DNA of 15,978 bases from Spirochaetota bacterium (lineage in GTDB: Bacteria > Spirochaetota > GWE2-31-10): assembly GCA_022361115.1 (NCBI GenBank), contig JAKSBL010000332.1, forward strand, positions 1-15,978. The letters run 5' to 3'. The notes beneath the pieces were generated by a model. The model saw only the letters and a list, made by a program, of their open reading frames with translations. It ran no database searches and had not been told where the DNA came from. This document shows positions 1,166-15,978 of this stretch, piece after piece; position 1 is the first letter of the stretch, and each line of letters opens with the position of its first letter. Both the position numbers and the translations under genes were made by a program.

Positions 1166-1168
1166 ACA

Positions 1169-1501
1169 ATGGCAGTTAATCCATTAGATCTGCAAACAAA
1201 TTTTTTACAAATGTCCAATGTTGGAAAACAACAGGCATTATCTAAAGAGTCGCAGGTATTAAGACAGGACCATGCCAGTGAAAATTTGAGTAAAACTAGT
1301 GAAAAGAATGCTGAAGACGTACCTGAAACCAAACAAATAGCAGAGAACAGCGGGAAAGTAAAAAACGACGGTAGTCGAAAACAAAACCAGGAAGAAGAAA
1401 AAAATAAGCAAAAAAAAGAGAAAGAAAAATCTGATCAGCAAAATAGCAATTTAGAAGCAAATCCTTCTGGAATTGGTCAAAACATAGATTTACTGGGATG
1501 A
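1169..1501 (+). CDS. Small YjfB-like putative motility protein (PF14070-like termini) with an internal Lys/Glu-rich low-complexity insert
   Basis: ATG at 1169 with AGGAAA 7 nt upstream, only 3 nt after the FapA stop. The N-terminus 'LQMSNVGKQQALSKESQVL' and C-terminus 'GIGQNIDLLG' resemble the conserved ends of the YjfB family, whose proteins are normally about 60 aa. The middle is KEKEK-rich. Terminator immediately downstream. Confidence 0.5.
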   Translation: MAVNPLDLQTNFLQMSNVGKQQALSKESQVLRQDHASENLSKTSEKNAEDVPETKQIAENSGKVKNDGSRKQNQEEEKNKQKKEKEKSDQQNSNLEANPSGIGQNIDLLG

Positions 1502-1542
1502 TATTGGCCTTATGAAAAAACTTGTGTTTTATAAAAGACCAT

Positions 1543-1582
1543 AAAAAAACCTGTATCCGTTGAGTTGAATACAGGCTTTTTT
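1543..1582. terminator. Bidirectional rho-independent terminator between convergent genes
   Basis: Stem cctgtat (1550-1556) pairs with atacagg (1569-1575) around a 12-nt loop. A7 tract lies upstream (1543-1549) and T6 downstream (1577-1582). It sits between the + strand stop at 1501 and the - strand stop at 1599. Confidence 0.6.
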
Positions 1583-1598
1583 ATAGTTAAGTTATCCA

Positions 1599-1826
1599 TT
1601 AATCTCTAATTTTTTCCATGGTTCTCAAACAACGAGAACATACTCTCATTTTTTTGTTTGCACCATTGACTTCAATCACTTTGTTATGAAGATTAACTTT
1701 AAAAAGTCTTTTTGTTTTTACACCAATTTTAGAACCAGTACCACCTTTTTTCTTAGCCAGACCTTTTCTAGGTACATTGTTTCCAACTGAGGTACCTCTT
1801 CCACAAATATCACAATTTCTTCCCAT
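1599..1826 (-). CDS. rpmB: 50S ribosomal protein L28-like, C4 zinc-ribbon variant with an inserted Gly/Lys-rich loop
   Basis: ATG at 1826 preceded by GGAGGAAAATC. L28-like signatures are C-x2-C-G...VGNNV, KTKR..F.VNLH, and RV..R.LRT. A second CxxC (CSRC) completes a Cys4 ribbon. About 16 extra residues (RKGLAKKKGGTGSKIG) sit between GNNV and KTKR. Confidence 0.6.
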   Translation of the reverse strand: MGRNCDICGRGTSVGNNVPRKGLAKKKGGTGSKIGVKTKRLFKVNLHNKVIEVNGANKKMRVCSRCLRTMEKIRD

Positions 1827-1940
1827 GATTTTCCTCCGTATTATTCGTTTATCATTACAATGAATTCGTTAAAGGATATTCTCGTTATCCAGAGCATTAG
1901 AATATATTATTTCATTCTGCTATTTTCTCTTATTCGCAGA

Positions 1941-1969
1941 AATATAGTATTTTTTTTAGAATTTGTCAA
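1941..1969 (-). promoter_or_regulatory. Sigma-A-type promoter for the L28-like gene
   Basis: On the minus strand, TTGACA (1969-1964) is followed by a 17-nt spacer and TATATT (1946-1941). The predicted TSS is near 1933, about 107 nt upstream of the ATG at 1826. Confidence 0.4.
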
Positions 1970-2007
1970 GATTTCACCAGTTTTTTTTAAACATTACTCA
2001 CCTTTTT

Positions 2008-3615
2008 TTAAGTCAGTGAATGATGTAAGGTATGTTCATCCGAATATACCATATAATCCATATCCTGAAAAATAGTATCTCTTTTTTCACATTCTTCTAA
2101 ATAACCTATATCATAATGACCACTTTTTATCATTTCATATAAATCTAGAAATCTCTTGCTATGGCACTTAATTTTTTTTAAGGCATACTGAACTGTCGTA
2201 TTAGTCGTTAAGATAAAAGCCCAGCAAGATGTTTGTGCAATTTGTAATTCCCTGGCCATTTGATTCAGCAATCTTTTAAGTGTATGATCATTAGTATTTG
2301 GGTGCTGATTTGCCATTTCAACCATTTTATCAGCACATTCATGTAAATGTCGATATATCCAATCATTGGAATCATTTAGCCAAACTTCCATATAACCTTT
2401 GTTTCCCCAACTGGACATGGAAGGGGTAGAGACTTGGTTGACCGGATATTTTTTTAAATATTCTGTCGGTGTAATTAAATCAACCGTTTCAGATTGATAG
2501 ATCTCTCGGCAGAGGTAATTAATAAATTTAGGTCCTTCATACCACCAATGGCCAAAAAGTTCTGCATCATAAGGAGCTACGATAATTGGTTCCCGGTCCA
2601 TTATGGAACTGAGATATTCGACCTGTTTTTCCCGATTAAAACGAAAATTTGCTGCATGACTTTTTGCTTTAGCATCTGCCCATTCAGGGTGATAAGGTTG
2701 TTTTTCAACATTACGCCCGGTAATTCGATAATATTTAAAACCTGTCATCATACGAATACCATCATTATGAATATAAGGGCCAATGTAATCCAGAGGCAGG
2801 TCAAATCCAATATCCCGGTAAAATTCCCGATAATCCGAATCCCCTGGATAACCTTCTTCTGCTGACCAGACCTGTTTAGAGGACTCAACATCCCTGCCAA
2901 TAGCTGCTACCCCATTTCGACAGTATAGAGGAGCGAAAACACCATATTTAGGTCTTTTTTCTGCATATAATATGCCATGAGTATCAACAAAAAAGAAACG
3001 AATTCCCCACTTTTTTAAAAACTCTTCCAACCCAGGATAATAGGCACATTCTGCATTCCAAATACCTTTTGGATAACGGCCAAAATGTTTATAATAATTT
3101 TTGACTGCAGTTTCAATCTGGCCATTAATGGCATTATTATTGATATTCATTAATGGCATAAAGCCATGGGTAGCTCCACAGGTAATAATTTCTAATTTAC
3201 CCATGTCCTGGAAAGTCTTAAAACCCTTTAGTAAATTTTTCTGATATTTATTGACAAATACATCATAACAGGCAGTTAGATGATGGTGATACATTTCAGC
3301 TGTTGCATAAAAATCTGTATTGCGGGTTCGATTCAGTTCTTTATGAGAAAGTTCTATGAGTTTGTTTAATTTTGTTTCAAAACGATTTTGCAAAAGGTGA
3401 TCAGCAAACATTTCACATAGTGGAGGTGTTAAAGACATGGTTATTCGAAAATCAATTCCGTCATTTACCAAACTCTCATATGTTTGCAATAATGGGATGT
3501 AGGTTTCTATAATGGCTTCGTAAAACCAGTCTTCTTCCATAAAGGATTCATGTTCTGGATGACGAACAAATGGCAAGTGGGCATGAAGCATGAGACATAA
3601 ATAACCTTTAGACAT
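2008..3615 (-). CDS. GH57-family 1,4-α-glucan branching enzyme-type protein (GH57 catalytic domain + DUF1957-type C-terminal region)
   Basis: Real start is ATG at 3615 with GGGAGGAAAA immediately upstream. The track's TTG at 3636 would run through the RBS. GH57 signatures are the HxHxP motif 'LHAHLPF', the nucleophile motif 'WNAECAYYPG', and the acid/base motif 'YDAELFGHWWYEG'. Length about 535 aa. Confidence 0.85.
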   Translation of the reverse strand: MSKGYLCLMLHAHLPFVRHPEHESFMEEDWFYEAIIETYIPLLQTYESLVNDGIDFRITMSLTPPLCEMFADHLLQNRFETKLNKLIELSHKELNRTRNTDFYATAEMYHHHLTACYDVFVNKYQKNLLKGFKTFQDMGKLEIITCGATHGFMPLMNINNNAINGQIETAVKNYYKHFGRYPKGIWNAECAYYPGLEEFLKKWGIRFFFVDTHGILYAEKRPKYGVFAPLYCRNGVAAIGRDVESSKQVWSAEEGYPGDSDYREFYRDIGFDLPLDYIGPYIHNDGIRMMTGFKYYRITGRNVEKQPYHPEWADAKAKSHAANFRFNREKQVEYLSSIMDREPIIVAPYDAELFGHWWYEGPKFINYLCREIYQSETVDLITPTEYLKKYPVNQVSTPSMSSWGNKGYMEVWLNDSNDWIYRHLHECADKMVEMANQHPNTNDHTLKRLLNQMARELQIAQTSCWAFILTTNTTVQYALKKIKCHSKRFLDLYEMIKSGHYDIGYLEECEKRDTIFQDMDYMVYSDEHTLHHSLT

Positions 3616-3763
3616 TTTTCCTCCCTTATATTTCAAATGTGTACTTTTGTATTGTAAATTATTTCAATATAAATACAATCATTTTTTCTATTTATTCTTT
3701 TTTTGAATGGATACTTTGATCTTACTTAATTTTGTGTTTTCTGTAATCCAGTTTATATTAATT

Positions 3764-3798
3764 TAAAAAAATACCCTGCCTTTCGCACTGACAGGGTA
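3764..3798 (-). terminator. Rho-independent terminator downstream of the DUF4912 gene
   Basis: Stem taccctg (3772-3778) pairs with cagggta (3792-3798) around a 13-nt loop. On the minus-strand transcript it is followed by U7, the complement of aaaaaaa at 3764-3770. It lies 23 nt past the stop at 3821. Confidence 0.6.
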
Positions 3799-3820
3799 GA
3801 AAATATGTTTTTATTTATGT

Positions 3821-4600
3821 TTATTTACTGGATAAAGGTTTTACAGGTGAACTTACATTGCCACTGAACAAGCTTTCTTCTGTTACATTGCCGGCTAAAA
3901 ATTTCATGAGTTCCTGGCTGCCAATTTGTTGAAATAATTGATCAGCTCCTGAAGCTTTTAATATATTATTAAAATACTCATCACTCATCATCCATTCCTC
4001 ATCAATCTGGTCAGAAACATCGTCTCGAGGAGTGCTAGCTATATTTGATCGTAATACGGTTATAAATTGTCCATCTTTGATATAACCTAAATCTATAACA
4101 TAAGTGCGGTTAGGCTGTGGAAAGTTAATATACCAGTTATTAGCAGTGTTATTTATTTTAATATCAAAATGTGAATGAGGCTGTTCAGGATTATTGGTTC
4201 CAGTAATATCATACACCCGTAAATATTTTGTCTGGTTGTATAACTGATGTTCGTCCATTACAGCTTGGTTGGTTTCCCAGTAAACAAAACCCCAAAAAGG
4301 ATCTCTCACCATAAAAATCATTTTATTTTTACCATAATGACTTGGTAATGGAGGTGCATCTGAAAAAGTATTATACTGTGGTTGAGGCTGGGGTTGACTT
4401 AAAGCACTGCTACTTTGAGAACTGCTATCTTGAGAAAAATCTTTCTTTATTTCTTGAGCTGTTTCAGTAACTTTTTCAGCTGTTAAAATTAGCTGTATCA
4501 AGTCGGATTTTTTAGCTTTTGCAGTGAATTTCAGTTTTTTTTCATTAGCAATTGTTTTTAATTCTGCAACAGTTTTTTTCTTTAAATTACTCTCATTCAT
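3821..4600 (-). CDS. Rho_N-like N-terminal motif + DUF4912 domain protein
   Basis: ATG at 4600 with GGGAG 9 nt upstream. The N-terminus 'TVAELKTIANEKKLKF..KKSDLIQLIL' matches the Rho-termination-factor N-terminal (Rho_N/SAP-like) motif. It is followed by a Ser/Gln/Pro linker and a C-terminal region 'MIFMVRDPFWGFVYWE...' typical of DUF4912. Confidence 0.6.
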   Translation of the reverse strand: MNESNLKKKTVAELKTIANEKKLKFTAKAKKSDLIQLILTAEKVTETAQEIKKDFSQDSSSQSSSALSQPQPQPQYNTFSDAPPLPSHYGKNKMIFMVRDPFWGFVYWETNQAVMDEHQLYNQTKYLRVYDITGTNNPEQPHSHFDIKINNTANNWYINFPQPNRTYVIDLGYIKDGQFITVLRSNIASTPRDDVSDQIDEEWMMSDEYFNNILKASGADQLFQQIGSQELMKFLAGNVTEESLFSGNVSSPVKPLSSK

Positions 4601-4689
4601 AATTATGCTCCCTTTTTTTATTCCGATAGATACTGTAGGATCATGAAAAAAAAGACAAGCGTGCAGTGTTCTTACCGGATTACTTTTTG

Positions 4690-4719
4690 TTGACTAATAT
4701 ACCATTAGTTCAGTATAAT
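4690..4719 (+). promoter_or_regulatory. Orphan near-consensus sigma-70-like promoter on the + strand with no downstream + strand ORF
   Basis: TTGACT (4690-4695) is followed by an 18-nt spacer and TATAAT (4714-4719). It sits in the 385-bp AT-rich gap between two minus-strand genes. A 7-bp perfect inverted repeat TAGTTAA-ct-TTAACTA follows at 4727-4742. Confidence 0.25.
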
Positions 4720-4931
4720 TAATTTATAGTTAACTTTAACTATTTTTTTAAAATTATGGTTATTTCACAAAAAAAGTACTGAATCCTAAAAAAATATTTA
4801 CATTTCCTGTGAATCTAATAAAAAAATAAATGTTTGTCAAATGTTTTTTTTAATATTGTAAACAAAAAAAGAGAAATTAATTTTTTTTAAAAAATCAATT
4901 TCTCTGGAATAAAATTATTTGGAAAATGAAT

Positions 4932-4968
4932 GAAAAAAGTCTTGAAAGTAATATAAGCGGATAAGACT
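4932..4968 (-). terminator. Weak candidate terminator after the outer-membrane protein gene (end of the 8-gene cluster)
   Basis: A 6-bp stem agtctt (4938-4943) pairs with aagact (4963-4968) around a 19-nt loop. On the minus transcript it is followed by U6, the complement of a6 at 4932-4937. Poor stem and long loop, so low confidence. Confidence 0.25.
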
Positions 4969-4985
4969 CTTTTTGCATTTTCTTG

Positions 4986-6457
4986 TTAAAATTCTATCTT
5001 ACAGCTTATTTGATAATCCTGGTAAAATCCAACCATATTTGGACCAAACTCACCAGCTCGCCAATTTTTGTTAAGTAAATGCCAATCAAAAGGGTATTTT
5101 GCTGATATATTGATATTTAAAGCACTGATTGGTTCAACATCAAAGCTAATGTTTAATAATCCCGATTGATCTTCAATTCCAAATAAATAAGAGGTACTGA
5201 TATTTAAAAAATCATTAACAGTTACCCGCACCATTCCAAATAAATAGTTATGGCGTAAAAAATGCTGGGGCTTTATTGCTGTATTCATTACATAATATCT
5301 ATCCAATAAAGACATTTCTTCCCACTTTTGTGAGTCTGATGTATTATTATAAATACGATCCAATTCAAAATCATCATCTTCACTATTAAATGCCCAATCT
5401 AAAGCTCCCGGCCCATAAAAGAGATATTCAGCCAGAATATATACTTTTCCTTTGATGGTATAATCAAAACCAATGGCTGCCTCTAAACCTTCATAGCCAT
5501 AAAAATTCCGTTCATCATAAAATTGAGCTTCATAAAACCATTGCTGGTTAAAACGGTATATCATATCAATAAACAGAGCTATTTCAATATCTGCTTTTAA
5601 AGAAAAACCCACAATATGGGAGAAATCATTATTGGTATATTCTGGCAGATTATTTACACTAGGATCTGCAACGGTTCTGAATTCCATTTCTGGTAAAAAA
5701 AAACTGTATAAAAATTCAAAATTAATTTTTCCCAGATAAAAATTCGTAGCATTACCAAATTTCCAACCCCAACCTTGGCTATTGATTGGGTTTTCTGGTG
5801 CTAAAGCAAATAACTCTATCCTCCAGAAATCCATTGGATAAAATTTTGCCAATATACCCAATTGGCCATCTGGACGAGCACTAAGATTTATAGGATTACG
5901 AGGATTAAATAGATCAGTGGGACTGAAGGAATAACCAAATCCTCTGGCCACTCGAATCAGACCAATATCAATGTTAAAAAAATCATGCTGAATACTCATT
6001 TCCAAACGGTCTAATTCAAAAGCACCAATGTAAGTGGACTTATAATAAAAGGTATAGAGAAGAAACTAGTATTAGCCGAATTCCAGGCATGGGTAATACT
6101 TCCATCTAAAGATAAAGGATTATAATAAGAAGTTAAATCAGGAACAACGGAGTTCATAAATGAATAATATTGATACTGATATGTTTCAGTAGCTGTACCA
6201 GCTAACATGGTAAGGTTAAAAGAAGCCTGGAATTTCAAATATTGACCAATGTTAGCTTTAAAACGGAGATTTGTATAATTATCCCATCCCCAGCGAAATT
6301 CTCCATAGTCAGGATCATCTTCAAAAGTGAGAGCTTGCTGAAATTTAACAGTACTTTCATTGCTTCCATAAAATTTCAGTTTTGTTTTCACTGCAAATAG
6401 CTGACTGATTAATATTAAAACCAGGATGATGGATAATAATCTTTTAAACATAATCAT
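4986..6457 (-). pseudogene. Putative outer-membrane β-barrel protein gene split by a 1-nt frameshift (N-terminal part 6457..6011, C-terminal part 6005..4986). Either an authentic pseudogene or a homopolymer sequencing error.
   Basis: The 5' piece starts at ATG 6457 and encodes the signal peptide MIMFKRLLSIILVLILISQLFAV. The 3' piece has no signal peptide of its own, is rich in alternating aromatic/hydrophilic β-strand-like segments, and ends ...YQISCKIEF with a C-terminal Phe. The two frames are both open only across 6014-6063, around the run tataataaaagg (6041-6052). Joined, the product is about 490 aa. Confidence 0.6.
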
Positions 6458-6504
6458 TTTCCTTGGTATCTTGAATTATTAAAAATTTCGATTTTAACCC
6501 TGCG

Positions 6505-6536
6505 TCTTAATCCCTGAATTGATTCAGGGATTAAGA
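6505..6536 (-). promoter_or_regulatory. 32-bp perfect palindrome (15-bp arms) in the LolA-like/OMP intergenic spacer. Intra-operon hairpin (attenuator, processing or stabilising element) or protein-binding site.
   Basis: tcttaatccctgaat (6505-6519), then tg, then attcagggattaaga (6522-6536). On the minus transcript it lies about 40 nt after the LolA-like stop (6575) and about 50 nt before the OMP start (6457). No immediate U-tract follows. Confidence 0.45.
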
Positions 6537-6574
6537 ATAACACACAAAACCAGAGTTTTATCAATCAAGTTCCA

Positions 6575-7309
6575 TTATCTTTCTAAATTTCGCAGGGTAA
6601 ATGTATTAGAAGGAATTTTGATGTCTAATTCAATATTTTTCATAATAAATATGGTTTTAGAGTTTTTTCGTAATAAGTCATCAAAGATAATTTTGGTAGG
6701 AAAATTTTTACCTTTTATCTTTATAAAATCATCAATAATGGTTTCTCTTAATTTAACTCCTGATAGAGCAAATAATTCTTCCTTTATTGGAATAAAATCT
6801 TCTTTATCAACCCACATCATCCGTTTAGGGTAGGCTACTGTTTTCCGTTTTGCATTAAGTTCCAAAACCCAAACTGGCCGTCCATTTAAGGTGGTTTCTT
6901 TTACTATTTTTGCATTATACTGATTCGCTAAAGAATCATTGTTCTCTGACATATCTTCATAAGACATATCAGATCCCATCATGGATTCTTTTAACATATG
7001 TCCGGTAATGGGCATGATCTCTTCTAAGTCTTCTGTATAGACATAAATTTTACCATCTTTTTTTAGATATTTTGTTCCTTCATCATCAGAATTGGTGAAT
7101 TCCAGGAACATGTTTTCTTCACCTTCAAAGTACCCGTAAAAAGTTTTAACAATTTCTTTTCCTGAAATTTCAATAATCATTTCACCAGTATATTTACTGG
7201 ATTCTGATGTTTGGTTATTATCCACCCGATCTAAAATTTCGGTTGTATCAATAGCAAACGTAGAAAATGCCGTCCCCAGGATTAAAATGAATATCATTAT
7301 TCTTCTCAT
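6575..7309 (-). CDS. LolA-like periplasmic protein ('outer membrane lipoprotein-sorting protein' family, PF17131-like), with signal peptide
   Basis: ATG 7309 with AAAGGAGATAAT upstream. Signal peptide MRRIMIFILILGTAFSTFA. Length about 244 aa. Motifs such as 'TFYGYFEGEENMFLEF', 'KDGKIYVY' and 'RPVWVLEL' are consistent with the open β-barrel LolA-like fold. It is adjacent to the FtsX-type ABC genes. Confidence 0.5.
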   Translation of the reverse strand: MRRIMIFILILGTAFSTFAIDTTEILDRVDNNQTSESSKYTGEMIIEISGKEIVKTFYGYFEGEENMFLEFTNSDDEGTKYLKKDGKIYVYTEDLEEIMPITGHMLKESMMGSDMSYEDMSENNDSLANQYNAKIVKETTLNGRPVWVLELNAKRKTVAYPKRMMWVDKEDFIPIKEELFALSGVKLRETIIDDFIKIKGKNFPTKIIFDDLLRKNSKTIFIMKNIELDIKIPSNTFTLRNLER

Positions 7310-7547
7310 ATTATCTCCTTTAATATATAAAATTCAAAATATATATAAATTTAGTTTAATTCAATTTAAAATTAAAGTTCACATAAAATCACTAAAAGGT
7401 CACGGAGGAACACAAAACGAGTGTTGTTTATTTGAGCTAAAAAATCTTTAAAGCTGCTCTGATAACTAAAGGTTCTGTTAACTTGCTTCAGTTTTCTATT
7501 TTTAGTGTTCATTTGTGTCTTTCCGTGCCTTTTTGTGATCATTTTCT

Positions 7548-9194
7548 TTACCTTCTCAAAGCTTCCACTGGTTCAATAAATGCTGATTTTAGTGAGGGAA
7601 AAATGGTACAACAGGATGATATTACAACTCCGAACAAAAATCCGTATAATAGGTAAAATGGTGAAAACTTAATAAAAATCGTATTTGCAACTGGGAATTC
7701 TACTCCTCCTGTCATTGCTAAAATATCAATGGGTACATAGGAAAGTATCAGTGAGAGGACACCTCCGATAAAGGTACCTGCGATGGACCCAAAAAAACTT
7801 AAGAGTATGGCTTCCAGGAAAAAAACCATGATAATTTCAAAACGGGACATCCCTAGAGCTCCCATCATGCCAATTTCCTTAATCCTTTCATGAATGACCA
7901 TAATAACTGTATTCACAATCAAAAATGATGCTACAATAATAAACACTCCATAAACAATAGCGTAAATGGTTTCCGCCATTTTCATCATTGCCATGAAAGT
8001 GTGAGAAGCCAGTTCTCTGATAAAGATATCCTCTTGATGGTTTAAGGCAGCAATTTTTTTTGTAACTGCTTTATATTCCTCAGGTTTATCCAGGTATACA
8101 TAAATAGCTTGAGTCTGTCCTTTTAAAGATGCCAGGCTTTGTACTCTTTCAAAGGGAAGCAAGATATAATAGCCGTCATAAGAAACATAATCAAAATCAA
8201 AAACCCCAACTACTCGAGGATTGTAAAATCTATCCGAATAGGTACTGGAGATCATTTTCATGGGAATACTCGGCAAAGCTGCTTTTTGTACGATATACAT
8301 GATTTCTTCTTTATCTGATGCAGTGATATTCGGATTTAGTTGATAGAAGTTATTTTCATATAGAGTATAGTATTGTTCAAATGTTGATTTAGCAATGATG
8401 CTGTTTTCCAAACTGATCATTAAGTTACTGGATTTACTAACTTTTTCTGGCAATTTGGTAACTTCTAAATTGATAAAATTATCCAGTAATTGCAGGTTAT
8501 CATTTTCTTCAATAATATCTGCAACAACATACAGGCCATGGCCATTTTTAGAATAATATTTATCCAAAAGAGTATTCATCTCTGAACTAAACATGTCTTT
8601 CCACCACTGCATTTCATACTCTTCAACCTGTCTGGGAATAATCCCCAGTTTTTTGGCAATGTTGATTCCTACAACAGCTTCATTGGCATACCGGGTTTTT
8701 GATTTTTTTTCAGGAAAACGTCCAATGACCAAACCATTACTTTTATTCTTGAGATTATAATCATTGATTCGAGTTTCGTCTGGCATAGCCAGTTCTTTTT
8801 CAATATCAACTCCCCAAACAATAGCATGTTTGATCAGGTTGCTGGTTAAGGTTGCATAAGATGTTATTCTTGGAAAAACTGCTTTCACTCCTTCAATAGA
8901 ATCAATCTCTGCTAAATAATTATCCAGATCTCCATTAGGGGGAGTAATTGGATATTGCACCGGAAAAAAATCTTCATTTGTTTTAAAATCTTCTGTAACT
9001 AATGAAATATCCCCTGTTTCAAAGGTTTTAACAATTGACTCCATACTGCCAATCATACCATTGATATAAGAAATCATGGCAATAATAAAGAATACCGCCA
9101 TAGCAATGGCAAAGATACAGAGAACCGATCTTCTCCTGTTACGGTTTATATTTCTTAAGGCAATGGTGAATAGATAACCTAATCCATTTTGCAT
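7548..9194 (-). CDS. FtsX/MacB-type ABC transporter permease, the third and divergent copy, with an unusually large extracytoplasmic domain of roughly 370 aa
   Basis: Preferred start is ATG at 9194 with AGGAGGTGAttaaa upstream. The track's 9203 is a GTG. N-terminal TM segment 'SVLCIFAIAMAVFFIIAMISYI' is followed by a long soluble region, then three C-terminal TM segments containing the FtsX motif region 'ERIKEIGMMGALGMSRFEIIMVFFLEA'. Confidence 0.8.
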   Translation of the reverse strand: MQNGLGYLFTIALRNINRNRRRSVLCIFAIAMAVFFIIAMISYINGMIGSMESIVKTFETGDISLVTEDFKTNEDFFPVQYPITPPNGDLDNYLAEIDSIEGVKAVFPRITSYATLTSNLIKHAIVWGVDIEKELAMPDETRINDYNLKNKSNGLVIGRFPEKKSKTRYANEAVVGINIAKKLGIIPRQVEEYEMQWWKDMFSSEMNTLLDKYYSKNGHGLYVVADIIEENDNLQLLDNFINLEVTKLPEKVSKSSNLMISLENSIIAKSTFEQYYTLYENNFYQLNPNITASDKEEIMYIVQKAALPSIPMKMISSTYSDRFYNPRVVGVFDFDYVSYDGYYILLPFERVQSLASLKGQTQAIYVYLDKPEEYKAVTKKIAALNHQEDIFIRELASHTFMAMMKMAETIYAIVYGVFIIVASFLIVNTVIMVIHERIKEIGMMGALGMSRFEIIMVFFLEAILLSFFGSIAGTFIGGVLSLILSYVPIDILAMTGGVEFPVANTIFIKFSPFYLLYGFLFGVVISSCCTIFPSLKSAFIEPVEALRR

Positions 9195-9245
9195 TTTAAT
9201 CACCTCCTATAAATGCTAATTTATATAATTCAGGCATTAATGGGT

Positions 9246-10553
9246 TTATTCAAACCTTAATGCATCTGAGACTGCAATTTTTAAAGCTTTTTTCACTGGA
9301 ATCAAAGCCATTAATCCGGCAACTAAAACAGAGCCGATAAAGGATCCGGCTATCATTCCATAATTCCAGGCAGAACGGGTAATTCCGGTAACCCGGTATC
9401 CAAATCCATCTTCAAAACCTTCCTCCAGCATTGCTGTTAAATCTATGCCAATTGGTATCATGTAAAAGTAATTAAATAGAGAAGCTGTGATTAAGCCCAG
9501 GGCTCCGCCGATTAAGCCGATTAGCATAGATTCATAAATGTAGAGCCGGGTAACCTGTCCGTCAGTTAAGCCCAGGGCCCGAACCATACCGATTTCTTTT
9601 GTCCGTTCCAGAACTGCCATGAGCATGGTGTTGGCGATTCCGGCTATGGCTAAGATCATTAGAAATCCAATGATTACATAAGTACCGTACGTATCACCAG
9701 CAGCCATAGCTAAAAAGTCTTTGGCATCTTCTTCCCAGCTGACCAGAGTTAAATGATCAGGTAAGGGTTCTGCCATATTGGCTAAAATTGCTTCTGGAGT
9801 TTCTTTTTTTCCTGGTAAATCAGTACTAAGTGCTCCCAGTTTTCGGATGCAAAGTTCTGAAACATGGCCTTGTAAAAGAATTCCCATTTCATCCTGTAAA
9901 ATATCTAATGGCAGCAAACCCAGCTTTCCATTAATAATAGGATTTGGTGAGTTAATGATTCCTCCGACAATCAAATCGATTACCTGATGGGTGTGATGGA
10001 TTTTACCAATCTCATCTTTTGTATCAATAGTGGTTGTCAATCTTAAAGTATCTCCGACTCTTACATTAAGATCTTGGGCTCCCCGTACACCTAGTACAAT
10101 TTTAGATACGCCATTAGCAATAAAAGATCCGCTTTCAATAAAATCCTCAAATAAAAAGAGGTTTTTAGAGAGTTTTGGGTCAATTCCCCAGAATTGAAAG
10201 GGAACTTCCTGGTCTTTACTGATGAGAGTACCGGCAAAAGCAGCTTTTGGTGCAGCTTTATAGCCAGCTTGAGCTAACTGGTCAATAACGAACTGATACT
10301 GATCAAAACCTTCGTATAGTGGTAACTCATCTTTGTTTTCATAATAGGCTTTTGTATAAATCTTAGCTGCTCCAGTTTCAAAATTGACCAGATTTCTTTT
10401 TGAATCAATTTTCATTCCCAAAACCCAGGAATCCATCCAGATTAACAGAAATACAGAAATAAATATAGCAATGATGGTTATAATAGACTTAACTTTGTGT
10501 CTTCCCAGGTTTCGATAAGCCATATCAAGTAAATTTATCTTTGAGCTGCTCAT
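9246..10553 (-). CDS. LolC/LolE-like FtsX-family ABC transporter permease (paralog 2 of a tandem pair)
   Basis: Real start is ATG 10553 (MSSSKINLL...) with AGGAGA 7 nt upstream overlapping the upstream gene's TAG. The track start 10571 is a TTG inside the upstream gene. Topology is 1 TM + a periplasmic domain of about 230 aa + 3 TM. 'RTKEIGMVRALGLTDGQV' is the FtsX motif. Ends ...DALRFE. Blockwise similar to the upstream permease. Confidence 0.85.
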   Translation of the reverse strand: MSSSKINLLDMAYRNLGRHKVKSIITIIAIFISVFLLIWMDSWVLGMKIDSKRNLVNFETGAAKIYTKAYYENKDELPLYEGFDQYQFVIDQLAQAGYKAAPKAAFAGTLISKDQEVPFQFWGIDPKLSKNLFLFEDFIESGSFIANGVSKIVLGVRGAQDLNVRVGDTLRLTTTIDTKDEIGKIHHTHQVIDLIVGGIINSPNPIINGKLGLLPLDILQDEMGILLQGHVSELCIRKLGALSTDLPGKKETPEAILANMAEPLPDHLTLVSWEEDAKDFLAMAAGDTYGTYVIIGFLMILAIAGIANTMLMAVLERTKEIGMVRALGLTDGQVTRLYIYESMLIGLIGGALGLITASLFNYFYMIPIGIDLTAMLEEGFEDGFGYRVTGITRSAWNYGMIAGSFIGSVLVAGLMALIPVKKALKIAVSDALRFE

Positions 10554-10563
10554 TTTATATCTC

Positions 10564-11865
10564 CTATTCAAACCTCAGAGCATCGGTAATTGGTTTTTTG
10601 ATAACCTTTAAAGAGGGCATGATTGCTGCTAATACTGGGATTAACATGCCAAAAATCAATGCTGTGACATAAGATTTTATACTCCAGGCAGAGCGGAATA
10701 CTCCTGTTACCCGGTAACCAAAATCATCAATATTCATCTGTTCCATCATAAATGTATAATCAATACCATAGTTTACCATAAAATAATTTATGATTGTTCC
10801 GATAATCAAACCCATTAAAGTACCAAACAAGCCGATTAAGAATGCTTCATAGAGAAATGCTTTCAAGATTTCTCCATCCTTCATCCCTAAAGCTCTCAGC
10901 ATACCCAGTTCCTTGGTCCGTTCAAAGGTTGCCATGAGTATGGTATTGGAAATGCCTGCTGCAACAATGATAAAGAGAAACATCAAAATAACCCCAGTTC
11001 CCCCTTTTTTTGTACTTGAGATAGCCAGGTAATCTTTGGCATCCACTTCCCAGCTGACTAATATTAAATCACTAGGGATATCACCAATAGTGCTCAGAAT
11101 GACTTCTGGTTTTTCTTTTTCAGAAGGTAATTGGGTTAAAGCAGCATCTTTAATCCGTATGACTATTTCAGATACTGTTCCTTCTAACCGGATACCCATA
11201 TCATCCTGTAAAATATCTAATGGTATAAATCCGATATTGCCATTGGCATATGGATTGGGGGTATTGATGATTCCACTCACTTGTAAATCAATCACCTGAT
11301 GAGTGTGATGAACTTTTCCCCTTTCATCCTTTTTATCAATAGTCGTTGTTAACCTTAAAGAATCACCTTTTTTTACTTTGAGCCTTTTTGCCCCTTTTAC
11401 CCCTAGCATTATTTCAAATTTGTTTTCTTGTAAATACTGGCCTTCTTCTACATAGTTATGGTAACGGAAAACAGTTTTTTCCTGGTCCGGATCAATCCCG
11501 ATAAACATAAAAGGTATTTCATTATCTTTGCTGATCAGGGTTCCGGAAAAAACTGCATGGGGAGCTGCTGCATAACCCGCTTCATTGAGTTTCGTAATCA
11601 ATTTTTCATGATCCTTAAAACCTTCATATAAAGGACGTTCATCTTTTCTCTCAAAATAGACTTGAGAATAAATTTTTGCAGACCCCGTTTCAAAATTGAC
11701 TAAATTACGCTGAGATTCAATATCAGCACCATATAGCATACAATCAATATAAATATAGGCCATAATCCCAATAATAATGGCAGTCATGGTTAAGGCTGTT
11801 TTAACCTTATGCCTGCCAAGATTTCGGAAGGCAAAATAAATATAATTAGGCTTAGTCCGGCTCAT
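10564..11865 (-). CDS. LolC/LolE-like FtsX-family ABC transporter permease (paralog 1)
   Basis: ATG 11865 overlaps the ATPase stop (ATGA), with GAGGAAAG upstream. Same 1+3 TM topology with a periplasmic domain. 'RTKELGMLRALGMKDGEI'. C-terminus ...DALRFE. Confidence 0.85.
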   Translation of the reverse strand: MSRTKPNYIYFAFRNLGRHKVKTALTMTAIIIGIMAYIYIDCMLYGADIESQRNLVNFETGSAKIYSQVYFERKDERPLYEGFKDHEKLITKLNEAGYAAAPHAVFSGTLISKDNEIPFMFIGIDPDQEKTVFRYHNYVEEGQYLQENKFEIMLGVKGAKRLKVKKGDSLRLTTTIDKKDERGKVHHTHQVIDLQVSGIINTPNPYANGNIGFIPLDILQDDMGIRLEGTVSEIVIRIKDAALTQLPSEKEKPEVILSTIGDIPSDLILVSWEVDAKDYLAISSTKKGGTGVILMFLFIIVAAGISNTILMATFERTKELGMLRALGMKDGEILKAFLYEAFLIGLFGTLMGLIIGTIINYFMVNYGIDYTFMMEQMNIDDFGYRVTGVFRSAWSIKSYVTALIFGMLIPVLAAIMPSLKVIKKPITDALRFE

Positions 11866-12545
11866 TTTGTTCTTTCCTCAGTGATTTTGCCATCACGCAA
11901 GAAAATCAGCCTTCTTGCATAATCCATAACCATTTTGTCATGGGTAGAAAAAATAAAAGTTGCTTTTTCTTCTTGATTGAGTTTGAGCATAATTTCTAGT
12001 ATTTCTGCTCCAATTTTAGAATCAAGATTTGCTGTAGGTTCATCGGCCAGAATTAATTTTGGTTTTTTCACTAATGCTCTGGCAATAGCAACTCTCTGCT
12101 GCTGTCCTCCAGATAGTTCTTTGGGTCGTCTTTTTTCCATCCCTTCTAATCCGACCTCTTTAATCGCAGCATAAGACCTTTCTTTAATTTCACCAGGTGC
12201 TAAGCCTAAAAGGGTGAGAGGAAAAGATACATTTTCCAATATGGTTAATACTGGAATTAAATTATAGGCTTGAAAAACAAAGCCTATATTTTTTCTTCTT
12301 AAAATTGCCTGTTCTTTTTTGGATAAATGCTTTACTGTTTGTTCATTGAGCACAATGTCTCCATCAGTAATGGTATCTAAACAACCAATTAAATGAAGTA
12401 GGGTAGATTTACCACTCCCTGAAGGGCCAACAATGGCAGTAAATTCCCCTTCAGCAAAATCTGTGGTGACTCCCCGCAGAGCTTTGACCACTATTTTATT
12501 TAAATAGTAATCTTTAAATACATTATTTACTTGAACTGTCTTCAT
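11862..12545 (-). CDS. ABC transporter ATP-binding protein, LolD/MacB-NBD type
   Basis: Walker A GPSGSGKST, Q-loop, signature LSGGQQQRVAIARAL, Walker B LILADEPT, H-loop STHD. AGGAGG lies 6 nt upstream of ATG 12545. The start sits 23 nt inside the 3' end of the SPFH gene. Confidence 0.95.
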   Translation of the reverse strand: MKTVQVNNVFKDYYLNKIVVKALRGVTTDFAEGEFTAIVGPSGSGKSTLLHLIGCLDTITDGDIVLNEQTVKHLSKKEQAILRRKNIGFVFQAYNLIPVLTILENVSFPLTLLGLAPGEIKERSYAAIKEVGLEGMEKRRPKELSGGQQQRVAIARALVKKPKLILADEPTANLDSKIGAEILEIMLKLNQEEKATFIFSTHDKMVMDYARRLIFLRDGKITEERTK

Positions 12546-13644
12546 CTACAACCTCCTTTGTAGCTTTCTTTTTACCTTTATTTAAAAGTCCCAATGCTTC
12601 AATGCCAGGTAGACTCAAGGAGTTTACCGAATCAGTAATTGAATGTGGAACCATAAACATTGAATTGCCATTTTTTAAACCTTCCAGAAGAACATTCAGC
12701 TCCCTTAGTTTAAGAGCAACTTCATCATTTTGATAGATAGCCGAAGCTTCTTCCAGCTTTTTGGCTAATTCAATTTCTGCATCTCCCAGAATGATCCTGG
12801 ATTCTTTTTCTCTAATGGCCTGTGCTTTTTTTGTTAAAGCATTTTCTAATTGTTTTGGAAAAGTAATGTCTCTGATTTCAATGGACTGGATAGTTATTCC
12901 CCATTCTGTTGTTTTTTTATCAACAGCAACTCTGAGTTCTTCTCCTAACTCTTCCCGTTGAGCAATAAAAACTGCCAGGTCATTTTCTCCAATAGCATCT
13001 CTTAAGGCAGTTTGAGCACTTAAAATAACAGCATGCATGTAATTTTCAACTTCTAAAACAGCCTTTTCAGCATCCCAGACCATCCAGAAAGCAATGGCAT
13101 CGACATTGATTGGAACACTATCTTTGGTAATTGTCATTTCTGCAGCAAAATCAGTAGAACGAATCCGTAAATCAATAATTTTATTAATAGAATCACTAAA
13201 AGGAAGGATTATAAATAATCCTGGCCCTTTGATTTTGTGAAATTTTCCGAATCGGAGAATAATTGCTCGTTCCCATTCTTTAATGATTTGAAAAACAGGT
13301 GCTAGTAAGCTTCCGACACTAACGATGGCAGCATAGTAGAGAGCTGTATTTCCATTCCACCAGTAAAAATAGATAACTGCTGCTAAGTCAATAAAAATAA
13401 TGGTTTCCCAGCGCCCTTTTAAGGAAATGGTGAGTAATAATAAAACAGGAAATACCATTAAAGTGATTAAATCTGCTTCTTTTAAAACTCCTGCATTAAA
13501 ATAGTAATACAAAAAGCCTAAAACAATGAAAACAGAAAGAATAAAAATTGAGATAGGATTAATAGTAAAGTTTTTTTCCAGAGTCCTTTCAATGATATTC
13601 TTAATGAGATAGTTACTTTTACCTTGCGGTTTCATTTTAAACAT
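12523..13644 (-). CDS. SPFH/Band-7 (stomatin/prohibitin-like) membrane protein with an atypical N-terminal region of about four TM segments
   Basis: SPFH core runs from 'EWERAIILRFGKF...GPGLFIILPF' through 'SRIILGDAEIE' and a coiled-coil tail. The roughly 120 residues ahead of it contain four hydrophobic stretches. Start ATG 13644 overlaps the GntR stop (TAATG). Confidence 0.85.
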   Translation of the reverse strand: MFKMKPQGKSNYLIKNIIERTLEKNFTINPISIFILSVFIVLGFLYYYFNAGVLKEADLITLMVFPVLLLLTISLKGRWETIIFIDLAAVIYFYWWNGNTALYYAAIVSVGSLLAPVFQIIKEWERAIILRFGKFHKIKGPGLFIILPFSDSINKIIDLRIRSTDFAAEMTITKDSVPINVDAIAFWMVWDAEKAVLEVENYMHAVILSAQTALRDAIGENDLAVFIAQREELGEELRVAVDKKTTEWGITIQSIEIRDITFPKQLENALTKKAQAIREKESRIILGDAEIELAKKLEEASAIYQNDEVALKLRELNVLLEGLKNGNSMFMVPHSITDSVNSLSLPGIEALGLLNKGKKKATKEVVDEDSSSK

Positions 13645-14072
13645 TAGTTATTTTCCTCCACCCGATAGTTTCTTAAAAAATTAATCAGTTCTTCTTTCCC
13701 TAATCCATAAGGTTTTAACTGATTTAAACAGTTAACGACTATTTCCTCGATCTTTTGTTTTTTTTCAATTTCACTCATTTCAACTCTTTTTTCTGAAATA
13801 AAAGTTCCAGACCCAACCTGTGTATTGACCAAACCTCTGATTTCCAGTTCAGAATAAGCTTTAGCTACAGTATTGGGATTGACTTTGAGTTGAATGGCCA
13901 AAGACCGAACAGTCGGTAACTGATCACCGACTTTTAATTCGTCAGTGCTAATTGCCAGCTCAATTTGCTGGATAATTTGTCGGTATACAGGGATACCACT
14001 TTTGCTATCTAATACAAAATTAAACTCTTTCATTTCTTCCTTTGGTTCAGTTACTAATTGTACTATTGTCAT
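13644..14072 (-). CDS. GntR-family transcriptional regulator, YtrA-like subfamily (short C-terminal domain)
   Basis: Winged-HTH 'IPVYRQIIQQIELAISTDELKVGDQLPTVRSLAIQLKVNPNTVAKAYSELEIRGLV'. Total 142 aa, the size of the YtrA subclass. First gene of the ABC cluster. No Shine-Dalgarno upstream, consistent with the leaderless promoter in the next feature. Confidence 0.85.
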   Translation of the reverse strand: MTIVQLVTEPKEEMKEFNFVLDSKSGIPVYRQIIQQIELAISTDELKVGDQLPTVRSLAIQLKVNPNTVAKAYSELEIRGLVNTQVGSGTFISEKRVEMSEIEKKQKIEEIVVNCLNQLKPYGLGKEELINFLRNYRVEENN

Positions 14073-14108
14073 AATACAATTATAAATGTATTAGTACAAT
14101 ATGTCAAT
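14057..14108 (-). promoter_or_regulatory. Consensus sigma-A promoter giving a leaderless GntR mRNA, overlapped by a 9-bp perfect inverted repeat as candidate autoregulatory operator
   Basis: On the minus strand, TTGACA (14108-14103) is followed by an 18-nt spacer and TATAAT (14084-14079), which ends 6 nt before ATG 14072. The TSS is therefore at or next to the A of the ATG. The inverted repeat ATTGTACTA (14057-14065, codons 3-5) pairs with TAGTACAAT (14092-14100, in the spacer). Each arm has a GTAC core. Confidence 0.55.
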
Positions 14109-14163
14109 ACCTTTTATGAAAAAAATTATACTTTTTTATAAAATCAGGATAAAAAAGAGAAAA

Positions 14164-14190
14164 AATCATATTTTTTTCTTTAATATGATT
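14164..14190. promoter_or_regulatory. AT-rich 8-bp inverted repeat AATCATAT-N11-ATATGATT between the divergent promoters
   Basis: aatcatat at 14164-14171 pairs with atatgatt at 14183-14190. It lies 15 nt upstream of the -35 of the + strand promoter and is flanked by A- and T-runs. Either a regulator site or a weak hairpin. Confidence 0.3.
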
Positions 14191-14204
14191 ATTTTGATTT
14201 TTTA

Positions 14205-14233
14205 TTGACTCACTTTTAACAATTATCTATCAT
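14205..14233 (+). promoter_or_regulatory. Sigma-A-type promoter for the CheW-like multidomain gene
   Basis: TTGACT (14205-14210), then a 17-nt spacer, then TATCAT (14228-14233), with 'aat' extending to 14236. AGGAT lies 7 nt before ATG 14318. An in-frame TAA stop at 14300-14302 sets the start. Confidence 0.35.
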
Positions 14234-14317
14234 AATAAAAGAATGGAGGAAGAGAAGTATTAGCTCATTTCTTCATTAACCTTGCTTATTTATCTCACAT
14301 AATACAGGATACCTGTT

Positions 14318-15978
14318 ATGGAAGATATCTACATACTTCAATTTAATAATGATCAATATGCCATCCGAAAGAAAGAAATTATTGATATATTGGAAGCACA
14401 AGATGTTCGGGAATTTCCGCTGGCTAATCAGAATCAAGGGTTGTACTATGCTTTTATTAATGGCAAAATATCTTATTTTTATGACTTGTCCAAATTTTTA
14501 GGTTATTATGCATTTGATTTAACACAACCAGGTAAATTGATATTAGTAACTAAAAATAATGATATGCCTGGTTTTATTTTTAACGGGATCAGTAAACAGG
14601 TCTTAATTGATGAGTTTATTTCTATTCCTCCATTTCTTAAAAGTAGTTTGATTAACCAGGGAATCATATTAGATAATCAGATAATTCCAATAATCAATAT
14701 TAAAGATGGCTATCAGCAACTGCAATCAGATCAATATCAACCTCCTCAACTTGAGTATCACATAAATAAAATCGAAAAATTAAATCTAAAAAATATTAAG
14801 AAAATTATTTTTTACAAAACCGGAGAACATTCCTTTTGCATACCAGAGAATGTAATTGAAGACGCAAAAATGGTTATTAATCAAATTTCTCATGGGACAC
14901 TTTTTAATGAATGTATAAAGGGAATAACTTACTGTAAAGAACAAGTTATTCCAATTATTGATTTTTCTAAATTTTTAAAGTGTACTAATAATAATACAGA
15001 TCACTTATTTACATCAAAAGTCGGCACTCAAGTGTTTGCTTTTTCTGTTGAAACATATATTGAAGAAATTACCTTATCAAAAGGCCAATGTAAAAAGCTT
15101 CCATTATTGATTCAAACCGAATGGGTAAGCCATGCAGTGATTTATCAAAATGAAATCTTTCCTGTTTTCAATCCTCAAGCAATTTTAAAAAATATCAATG
15201 AGGAATTCAATTTTCAACCTTTTCTTGATCAATATCATACTTCATCCCCCTTTCCCAATCAGTTTTTAAAGGAAGAAATTGAATTATTGGAATTTGAGCT
15301 TGCAGGAAATGAATATAGTCTTCCTGAAATGGAAATAATTGATACTTTTGCAATGCAAAAATATTATCCCTTTCCAAATATGACCACTTTAATGATGGGT
15401 CTGACAGTTTATAAGAATGAATTTTTACCTGTATTAGATCTGGTGGGAAAAAAAAGAAATCTTCCTGATCATTTATCTGGTTATCAAATGATTGTGATTA
15501 AGAATGGAAATTTCAAAGCAGTAATTATTGCTGAGAAAATTATCGGTAAGAAAAAGATATCTTTAAATATGCAGCACCATCTGCCTATTAAACAGAGGTA
15601 TCCATTAATTTATGGGTGCTATATTGAAAAACATGTGAAGCTTATCCTGAATATTGAAGCGATAGCTGTCTACTATGATCAAGCTGATTATGATTATTTT
15701 TCCAAGTCATTTTCGCAACAAATCAGAAATATTGATGAACAAGTTGTTATTTTAGAAAAAAATAAAGAATCGACTCAAGCAGAAGAATCGACTCAAGCAG
15801 AAGAATCTATTCAAGCAGAAGAATCTATTCAAGTAGAAGAATCGGTTCAAGTAGAAGAATCGGTTCAAGTAGAAGAATCGGTTCAAGCAGAAGAATCTAT
15901 TGAAGCAGAAGAATCTATTGAAGCAGAAGAATCTATTGAAGCAGAAGAATCTATTGAAGCAGAAGAATCTATTGAAGC
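14318..15978 (+). CDS. Protein with about four tandem CheW-like domains followed by an acidic hexapeptide tandem-repeat region. 3'-truncated by the window edge, with 553 codons in window.
   Basis: Uninterrupted ORF from ATG 14318 to the window end. The best CheW-like block is 'LLEFELAGNEYSLPEMEIIDTFAMQKYYPFPNMTTLMMGLTVYKNEFLPVLDLVGKK'. Weaker repeats of the same pattern begin near residues 5, 165 and 250 ('...IIFYKTGEHSFCIPENV...KGITYCKEQVIPIIDFSKFL'). Confidence 0.55.
   Translation, partial: MEDIYILQFNNDQYAIRKKEIIDILEAQDVREFPLANQNQGLYYAFINGKISYFYDLSKFLGYYAFDLTQPGKLILVTKNNDMPGFIFNGISKQVLIDEFISIPPFLKSSLINQGIILDNQIIPIINIKDGYQQLQSDQYQPPQLEYHINKIEKLNLKNIKKIIFYKTGEHSFCIPENVIEDAKMVINQISHGTLFNECIKGITYCKEQVIPIIDFSKFLKCTNNNTDHLFTSKVGTQVFAFSVETYIEEITLSKGQCKKLPLLIQTEWVSHAVIYQNEIFPVFNPQAILKNINEEFNFQPFLDQYHTSSPFPNQFLKEEIELLEFELAGNEYSLPEMEIIDTFAMQKYYPFPNMTTLMMGLTVYKNEFLPVLDLVGKKRNLPDHLSGYQMIVIKNGNFKAVIIAEKIIGKKKISLNMQHHLPIKQRYPLIYGCYIEKHVKLILNIEAIAVYYDQADYDYFSKSFSQQIRNIDEQVVILEKNKESTQAEESTQAEESIQAEESIQVEESVQVEESVQVEESVQAEESIEAEESIEAEESIEAEESIEAEESIE
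15767..15978 (+). repeat. Perfect-period 18-bp tandem repeat of about 11.8 copies that continues beyond the window. In frame it encodes E-S-[T/I/V]-[Q/E]-[A/V]-E hexapeptides at the C-terminal part of the CheW-like protein.
   Basis: Units from 15767 in order: gaatcgactcaagcagaa x2, gaatctattcaagcagaa, gaatctattcaagtagaa, gaatcggttcaagtagaa x2, gaatcggttcaagcagaa, gaatctattgaagcagaa x4, then a partial unit. Variants sit in contiguous blocks. Confidence 0.95.

Follow-up and report, generated by a model that had tools for sequence, protein, structure and literature searches.

A cluster of eight genes lies on the minus strand (positions 4986–14108) of a 15,978-nt contig from the metagenome-assembled genome (MAG) of an uncultured spirochaete; the whole contig is called the window below. 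We consider the chances about even that this cluster is an inducible operon for outward transport, by which a hydrophobic or amphipathic cargo (most probably of non-protein nature) leaves the inner membrane. In the proposed mechanism, a type-VII (Lol/MacB-like) ATP-binding cassette (ABC) machine would pull the cargo out of the inner membrane, either from its outer leaflet or at its periplasmic face. Such a machine would be built from one ATPase and a heterodimer of A-type and B-type FtsX permeases, with a spare A-type paralogue in the window. A soluble carrier of the LolA3/DUF1329 type (PF17131) would ferry the cargo over the periplasm, and a dedicated 18-stranded AlgE/OprD/DUF1302-like β-barrel would accept it for insertion into, or passage across, the outer membrane. 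The inner-membrane complex probably has a stomatin-type SPFH protein as its scaffold. Until some signal relieves the repression, a YtrA-like GntR protein would keep its own promoter silent by way of inverted ATTGTACTA words. Candidate cargoes are lipids or pigments made by the cell itself and toxicants that act on membranes.

According to the list of open reading frames (ORFs) and Pfam, the minus-strand order is GntR, SPFH, ABC ATPase, three FtsX permeases, LolA_like carrier, and β-barrel (Table 1), and all three permeases contain FtsX and MacB_PCD domains. The same order and domain calls had been read from the raw sequence in a preliminary description, and every assignment that can be checked by Pfam was confirmed. 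The tight junctions reported there were also verified. The GntR and SPFH genes overlap by one base (TAATG, at 13644), the SPFH and ATPase genes share 23 nt (12523–12545), and the overlap of the ATPase and permease 1 genes is ATGA (11862–11865). The TAG stop of permease 1 is followed by GAGATATAAA and then by the ATG of permease 2 at 10553, and an AGGAG Shine–Dalgarno sequence ahead of permease 2 straddles the permease 1 stop codon. The last three genes are spaced loosely, with gaps of 42, 238, and 117 nt. As had been claimed, a gene for a membrane-fusion protein (MFP) is absent: no HlyD-family match was found by Pfam in any ORF of the window. A reading of the cluster as a defence system was rejected, as PADLOC returned generic ATPase and LolE-transmembrane matches only. 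The host had been taken for a diderm Firmicute, which is wrong. The carrier and the C-terminal barrel piece are NCBI proteins of a "Spirochaetes bacterium" MAG, and all named relatives belong to Spirochaetes, Spirochaetota, or Treponema. Because the host is a spirochaete, the argument about lipoprotein sorting in Halanaerobiales and Negativicutes falls away.

The arrangement GntR–SPFH–ATPase–FtsX (two or three copies)–PF17131–barrel is kept in seven other spirochaete loci (L003, L004, L005, L006, L008, L022, and L024), and therefore represents more than a chance association; the cluster had been presented as one unit, and the neighborhood bears this out. The identity of the barrel to that of the window falls from 49% to 34% across the clusters. 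Among 14 informative genome loci, 12 show the carrier gene directly upstream of the barrel gene or at one gene's distance, as do L022–L024. In a Spirochaetaceae MAG from termite gut (L010), an ATPase–A–B–carrier–barrel core (497–4769) occurs without GntR and SPFH. This core follows genes for Pyr_redox_2/DoxX, polyprenyl synthetase, and UbiA prenyltransferase, a context that may hint at a prenyl-lipid cargo in this single case.

Table 1 Features of the spirochaete gene cluster and its control region (window coordinates).
Feature	Position	Strand	Basis or remark
Sigma-70-type promoter TTGACA-17-TATAAT	14079..14107	-	sole 12/12 consensus match in 3600–14700
Putative YtrA-type operator	14057..14108	.	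inverted ATTGTACTA / TAGTACAAT words plus ATTGTATTA
YtrA-like short GntR repressor	13644..14033	-	GntR PF00392, 8e-17; 129 amino acids from Met14; maximal ORF to 14072
Stomatin-type SPFH protein	12523..13644	-	Band_7 PF01145, 1e-37 (130 bits)
ABC ATPase, Lol/MacB/DevA group	11862..12545	-	ABC_tran, 2e-36
Permease 1, A-type FtsX/MacB_PCD	10564..11865	-	Pfam; 433 amino acids
Permease 2, A-type	9246..10553	-	435 amino acids from ATG 10553; paralogue 53% identical to permease 1
Permease 3, B-type, enlarged periplasmic domain	7548..9203	-	Pfam; 551 amino acids, start codon uncertain
Secreted LolA-superfamily carrier, PF17131 (TP_0789-like/LolA3) type	6575..7309	-	Pfam, LolA_like PF17131, 3e-49
18-stranded outer-membrane β-barrel gene	4986..6457	-	broken by 1-nt deletion at T-run 6047–6050

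The carrier matches PF17131 with 167.4 bits (E-value of 3.4e-49) over model positions 2–184 of 184, where the gathering score is 30 bits, and gives only weak DUF1329 co-matches besides. Hydropathy indicates one N-terminal signal-like segment without a lipobox cysteine. The predicted structure of this secreted soluble protein is a lipid-carrier fold with a hydrophobic groove. It matches the folds of 3bk5, 3buu, and 9tp6, and its nearest neighbors are DUF1329 and LolA3. The secreted LolA-like protein of the preliminary description is thus borne out by the family match, the signal-like segment, and the LolA-superfamily fold; when compared with the fold and sequence family of canonical LolA, the carrier did not belong to them. 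Residues 101–119 form a Met-rich loop, ITGHMLKESMMGSDMSYED, which is invariant or nearly so across 40 relatives and was modeled at only ~70 in the predicted local distance difference test. The loop is a candidate lid or partner-binding element. The carrier and barrel genes are separated by a region that contains, at 6505–6536 of the minus strand, an inverted repeat whose 15-nt arms match perfectly (14 bp are paired in the fold). For the RNA of this region, the folding energy is −33.4 kcal/mol (z = −4.35); no T-tract follows the repeat, and the corresponding gaps in relatives range from ~6 to 150 nt. The repeat may be an attenuator or a processing/stability element.

The barrel has a single N-terminal signal-like segment without a lipobox cysteine by hydropathy, and its single chain is modeled confidently with 18 strands, the nearest solved folds being AlgE and Occ. 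The signal peptide, the -KIEF end, and the barrel fold agree with the preliminary description, but the gene is not a single intact ORF, being split by the 1-nt deletion. The two pieces lie in different frames: 6011–6457 (148 amino acids, with the signal peptide) and 4986–6005 (339 amino acids, ending in KIEF). Addition of one T to the run restores FSIPF|YYKSTYIGAF, in agreement with the family consensus FSIPFYYKSTYIGSFELERL; the CCTTTTAT of the window corresponds to CCTTTTTAT or CCATTTTAT in relatives. The repaired protein of 490 amino acids aligns end to end with relatives of ~465 amino acids. The NCBI annotation holds only the C-terminal 337 amino acids, as a hypothetical protein. Either the homopolymer was misassembled and the assembly is wrong at one base, or the gene is a true pseudogene, in which case the system may be inactive here. 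Programmed −1 slippage at CCU_UUU_A was weighed as well; it is mechanically possible and would restore the frame, but an indel is the simpler explanation because the relatives have intact ORFs with one more T.

No family was assigned to the barrel by Pfam and NCBIfam scans of both pieces and 34 relatives. None of the 34 family members matched DUF1302 (PF06980) at E ≤ 1, and a Pfam match to the TolC-like OEP family (PF02321) is absent from the barrel. A profile search of a word-indexed protein database contributed only four remote barrel relatives, and the full HMMER scan yielded 514. Among these distant relatives, P0169 scored 17 bits against DUF1302, and others gave weak matches to Wzi or Porin_4; all of these are below threshold. 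The link to DUF1302 draws on such sub-threshold scores and on published work.

The top NCBIfam match of the ATPase is LolD (TIGR02211; 225.8 bits, cut-off 307.75), and the DarD, DevA, and FtsE models score nearly as high. The lolCE model (TIGR02212; cut-off 362.45) gave 102.7 bits for permease 1 and 80.2 and 90.0 bits for the other two permeases, and the FtsX equivalog scores are the weakest among the family matches. In the Protein Data Bank (PDB), the permeases matched LolF/LolE (1e-15 to 1e-16, the best matches of permease 1), MacB (1e-10), and YtrF (3e-9). Every permease shows a 1 + 3 transmembrane layout by hydropathy, with a large periplasmic domain between the first and second segments. 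The B-type resembles the A-type in the FtsX part only (34% identity). It occurs in a long form of 551–575 amino acids (the window, L006, and L022), with ~135 extra residues in the periplasmic domain, and in a short form of ~415 amino acids (L003, L004, L005, L008, and L010). A-type and B-type permeases are found together in every complete related cluster examined by tblastn; the third FtsX protein of L022 (575 amino acids) and the second of L024 (431 amino acids) were typed by Pfam and length only. By Pfam, L022 has three FtsX genes and L024 has two. The extra A-type copy is missing in L006, L008, and L024, and it is placed after the carrier gene in L003 and L004. Judged from these sequences, the permease core is one A-type plus one B-type protein. 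The extra transmembrane segments ascribed to the SPFH protein are supported by hydropathy, with three or four N-terminal hydrophobic segments (peaks at 31–49, 57–75, and 100–121). Its PDB matches are stomatin (4e-42) and QmcA (8e-26), and HflK/C reach just 1e-7 to 1e-8.

The repressor has the layout of YtrA: PF00392 spans residues 30–92, followed by a short C-terminal part of ~50 amino acids, giving a total of ~120–130. The best PDB matches are short GntR proteins (3by6, 4r1h, 4ham, and 3neu; ~121–134 amino acids), and full-length alignments with PmtR and Rv1152 were obtained in NCBIfam, both scoring under the equivalog cut-off. The promoter, whose position is kept in five related loci, sits within a 52-nt imperfect palindrome, the two 26-nt arms of which are 77% complementary. 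The putative operator overlaps the −35, the −10, and the start region. In six loci whose proteins share only ~45–60% identity, its ATTGTACTA, ATTGTATTA, and TAGTACAAT words vary little or not at all; at other promoters of the window, the operator word is no more frequent than chance. This conservation of the promoter and operator words supports autoregulation by the short repressor through the putative operator. A self-operator had been predicted for this gene together with a leaderless start, and only the former is retained, as a putative site. The ATG at 14072 falls inside the conserved operator word TGTATTAT, and in five related loci the start is located 25–45 nt further downstream, behind a Shine–Dalgarno sequence. 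Met14 (ATG at 14033) is preceded by AAGGAAG, and the relatives are called at 126–131 amino acids. The leaderless start at 14072 was therefore rejected as less likely, and Met14 is probably the start codon.

Related modules also occur beyond the Spirochaetes. On plasmid p1 of Burkholderia thailandensis, PF17131 is followed by an ATPase, a fused double-FtsX permease, and a hypothetical protein of 380 amino acids. The latter scored 33.7 bits against the barrel profile through the motif G.R.A.G.G..FSP.D..NP.NP, and 21.2 bits against DUF1302 (cut-off 23.2) on a stretch that also matches the barrel profile. Persicobacter has the order TetR, barrel relative (26.4 bits), ATPase, FtsX, FtsX, and PF17131. 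In two metagenome contigs (L020 and L021; 5115–9828), PF17131, a remote barrel relative, and an MMPL transporter stand in a row. Their PF17131 plus MMPL layout echoes TP0789/TP0790 of Treponema pallidum and PG1175-81 of Porphyromonas gingivalis. A TolC-like OEP gene lies nearby on the opposite strand in these contigs. The locus is better described as a spirochaete-specific variant, with YtrA, stomatin, and three permeases, of a widespread, putative carrier-plus-barrel export module. It is possible, and suggested here only tentatively, that the carrier and the DUF1302-like barrel form a modular outer-membrane "receiver" for hydrophobic cargo across phyla, driven by an FtsX-type ABC or by an MMPL/RND exporter. 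If this is true, the module would join Lol, Lpt, and Mla as a general route for lipids across the envelope. Its spirochaete form would be stress-regulated and stomatin-scaffolded, and may place lipids or lipoproteins in the unusual outer membrane of these bacteria.

The outward direction is suggested by the family of the motor, since all known MacB/Lol-type ABC systems are outward-acting or are periplasmic mechanotransmitters (PMC5985334). Transfer from the ABC machine to the LolA-like carrier and on to a dedicated barrel had been put forward in the preliminary description and is the most economical reading, in which we infer both the direction and the hand-off. A non-protein cargo is hinted at by relatives of the carrier. 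LolA3 of P. gingivalis (PGN_0947, PDB ID: 9tp6) has a hydrophobic groove; the arginine of LolA and the leucine of LolB are both missing from it, and it fails to bind LolB (PMC13103446). In Flavobacterium johnsoniae, loss of lolA3 had no effect on gliding motility or type IX secretion; LolA2 and LolB2 are located in a flexirubin pigment operon (PMC11885536). In addition, an MMPL–LolA-like fusion and the adjacent porin are induced on C28 alkane (PMC6304351), and the P. gingivalis PF17131 and MMPL operon PG1175-81 is induced by iron limitation (PMC10434189). By analogy, the LolA3/DUF1329-type carrier argues against a general lipoprotein cargo. A hydrophobic non-protein cargo or a toxicant, rather than bulk lipoproteins, is favored by the carrier type and the pore-like barrel, and also by the patchy occurrence of the operon and its control by a repressor.

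Several observations weigh against this proposal. The barrel gene is frameshifted in the assembly of the window. One barrel relative (L001) stands alone, and another (L007) is near a MacB-like pump with an MFP, both without a recognizable carrier. In L007 (2990–11395), the barrel relative is ~2.6 kb from a fused FtsX permease of 857 amino acids, an ATPase, and an HlyD-type adaptor, and the barrel family may thus also serve MFP-containing pumps. A 267-amino-acid protein upstream of the L007 barrel was considered as a LolA-like protein and rejected, as it is not detectable as such. SPFH and GntR are missing from the non-spirochaete versions and from L010, and are therefore accessories. Finally, the nearest characterized relatives of the permeases are the lipoprotein extractors LolE and LolF, which keeps lipoproteins among the possible cargoes.

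The last point leads to a second, dedicated Lol-type pathway for a subset of lipoproteins, in which the barrel would be a spirochaetal LolB-like insertase or a surface flippase. In NCBIfam and the PDB, the ATPase and the permeases come closest to LolD and LolC/E/F; the carrier has a LolA-superfamily predicted fold, and Spirochaetes, which are devoid of LolB, carry numerous lipoproteins on their surface (PMC11326224; PMC13078400). However, all Lol equivalog scores are far below their cut-offs, and the LolA3 relative has neither the residues for lipoprotein transfer nor a LolB partner (PMC13103446), nor does its deletion disturb gliding motility or type IX secretion (PMC11885536). Repressor control and a patchy distribution are also ill-suited to housekeeping sorting, and an 18-stranded AlgE/OprD-like pore is not among the known lipoprotein insertases; we consider this pathway unlikely. 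The same barrel and carrier could replace the MFP and TolC in a stress-induced detoxification pump of the MacB/YtrBCDEF/Pmt kind, expelling antimicrobial peptides or amphiphiles. YtrA-type repressors typically govern FtsX/ABC export operons, and PmtR is among the best NCBIfam matches and YtrF among the PDB matches. The window contains no recognizable MFP or TolC gene, and the L007 barrel relative is near an MFP-containing pump. Such a pump, which seems rather unlikely to us, largely overlaps with the export operon proposed above and differs in the cargo alone, but the known tripartite pumps do not work by a soluble shuttle.

The remaining alternatives are further removed from export. FtsX-family permeases include non-transporting regulators (PMC5985334), and the periplasmic insert of the B-type permease (~135 amino acids) would suit an FtsEX-type mechanotransmission device, whose ATP-driven periplasmic domains would toggle the activity of the barrel or the LolA-like protein. 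This is very unlikely, with FtsX being the weakest of the equivalog matches, the partner having a predicted lipid-carrier fold with a hydrophobic groove, and the same carrier–barrel pair occurring beside an MMPL/RND exporter, a true transporter. Uptake of a hydrophobic nutrient would reverse the route, with the barrel as the entry channel, the LolA-like protein as the inward ferry, and the ABC machine as an importer. Catabolic clusters for alkanes, monoterpenes, and esters do contain DUF1302/DUF1329 and MMPL–LolA-like modules or are induced together with them (PMC6304351; PMC6394551; bioRxiv 10.1101/2020.07.04.188060). In contrast, no MacB/Lol-type ABC importer is known, the solved relatives of the permeases have no transmembrane substrate path (PMC5985334), and catabolic genes are not among the flanks of the cluster, which makes uptake highly improbable.

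The flanking genes are unrelated to the cluster and include FapA, a GH57 branching enzyme with DUF4912, and a divergent CheW-like gene. Downstream of the cluster (2008–4600, minus strand), the GH57 branching enzyme is encoded with a DUF4912 protein whose N-terminus is Rho_N/HeH-like; these genes are not kept beside the cluster in relatives. The divergent ORF (14318–15976, plus strand) has three CheW-like domains and runs past the window end. Its C-terminus consists of an 18-nt tandem repeat (11.9 copies, 15765–15978) that encodes EESIQA/EESIEA units.

How hydrophobic molecules other than lipopolysaccharide and ordinary lipoproteins cross the periplasm is poorly mapped, and Spirochaetes lack LolB and have atypical outer membranes. 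The proposed export operon joins four observations that were formerly separate: LolA3-type proteins, DUF1302/DUF1329 pairs, MMPL–LolA-like operons, and the Borrelia BBJ cluster. The joint picture is that of a carrier and a dedicated barrel usable by different inner-membrane motors, and the locus would gain weight should the module turn out to be a lipid route of general use. The conserved operator is a clean regulatory handle. The spirochaete hosts are uncultured, which limits direct tests, and B. thailandensis and Persicobacter are tractable genetic stand-ins.

Among known systems, LolCDE–LolA shares with the locus a separate LolD-like ATPase, two different four-transmembrane FtsX/MacB_PCD permeases, and a soluble LolA-fold carrier with a signal of the signal peptidase I type. 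The two had been held to be distinct, which is supported by the scores of the ATPase (225.8 against 307.75 bits for LolD) and the permeases (80–103 against 362.45 bits for lolCE), far below the equivalog cut-offs, and by a carrier that is of the LolA3/DUF1329 type and not of the LolA type. Moreover, the outer-membrane partner is an integral barrel, whereas LolB is a lipoprotein, and the operon is repressor-controlled and patchily distributed. MacAB–TolC resembles the locus in its MacB-type permeases, and the ytr operon (YtrA–YtrBCDEF) of Bacillus subtilis in having a short YtrA-type GntR protein over an FtsX/ABC operon. The distinction from MacAB–TolC holds, since neither an HlyD adaptor nor a PF02321 (TolC-like) factor was found in the locus, and its nucleotide-binding domain is not fused. 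The ytr operon has no LolA-like or outer-membrane component.

In the same phylum, BBJ23–BBJ29 of Borrelia burgdorferi (lp38) comprises a MacB-like ABC transporter, a LolA-like protein, and an Omp85 barrel, for which the outward transport of a non-polar ligand was proposed on computational and structural grounds (PMC13078400). The concept is the same, but the Borrelia cluster, which lacks SPFH and GntR, encodes two TPR proteins and a single permease. It was rejected as an orthologue, because only the ATPase (32% identity) and the FtsX domain match, and BBJ26 and BBJ27 are its only related proteins. The locus gave no match to BBJ25, BBJ28, BBJ23, or BBJ24; BBJ28 has no PF17131 match, and BBJ25 is Omp85-like and unrelated to the barrel of the window. 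A PF17131-type protein is paired with MMPL in P. gingivalis PG1175-81, and this pairing is echoed in T. pallidum TP0789/TP0790 (PMC8407342; PMC10600179). These differ from the locus in having an MMPL/RND partner and a TetR regulator.

The arrangement had been called an undescribed hybrid. We found no paper describing an FtsX-type ABC with PF17131 and a barrel, or the spirochaete operon. The term is nevertheless overstated, because the recurrent association of a PF17131/DUF1329-type carrier, a DUF1302-like 18-stranded barrel, and an inner-membrane exporter has been noted before, although not characterized (bioRxiv 10.1101/072470; PMC13499233; PMC6304351). DUF1302 and DUF1329 genes are cofit with an RND exporter, for which "export of a cell wall component" was proposed (bioRxiv 10.1101/072470). 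AlgE and Occ are the nearest solved folds of the 18-stranded DUF1302 barrel, whose binding to DUF1329 was predicted with an interface predicted template modeling score of 0.84 (PMC13499233). The DUF1329/DUF1302 system of Shewanella and Pseudomonas thus resembles the locus in having a secreted LolA-superfamily protein and an 18-stranded barrel with AlgE/Occ neighbors beside an inner-membrane exporter. The exporter is of the RND/MMPL type there and an FtsX-type ABC here, and the barrel family of the locus has no Pfam match, its distant relatives reaching only sub-threshold DUF1302 or Wzi scores. The carrier here belongs to PF17131, and a stomatin and a YtrA repressor are added in the spirochaete operon.

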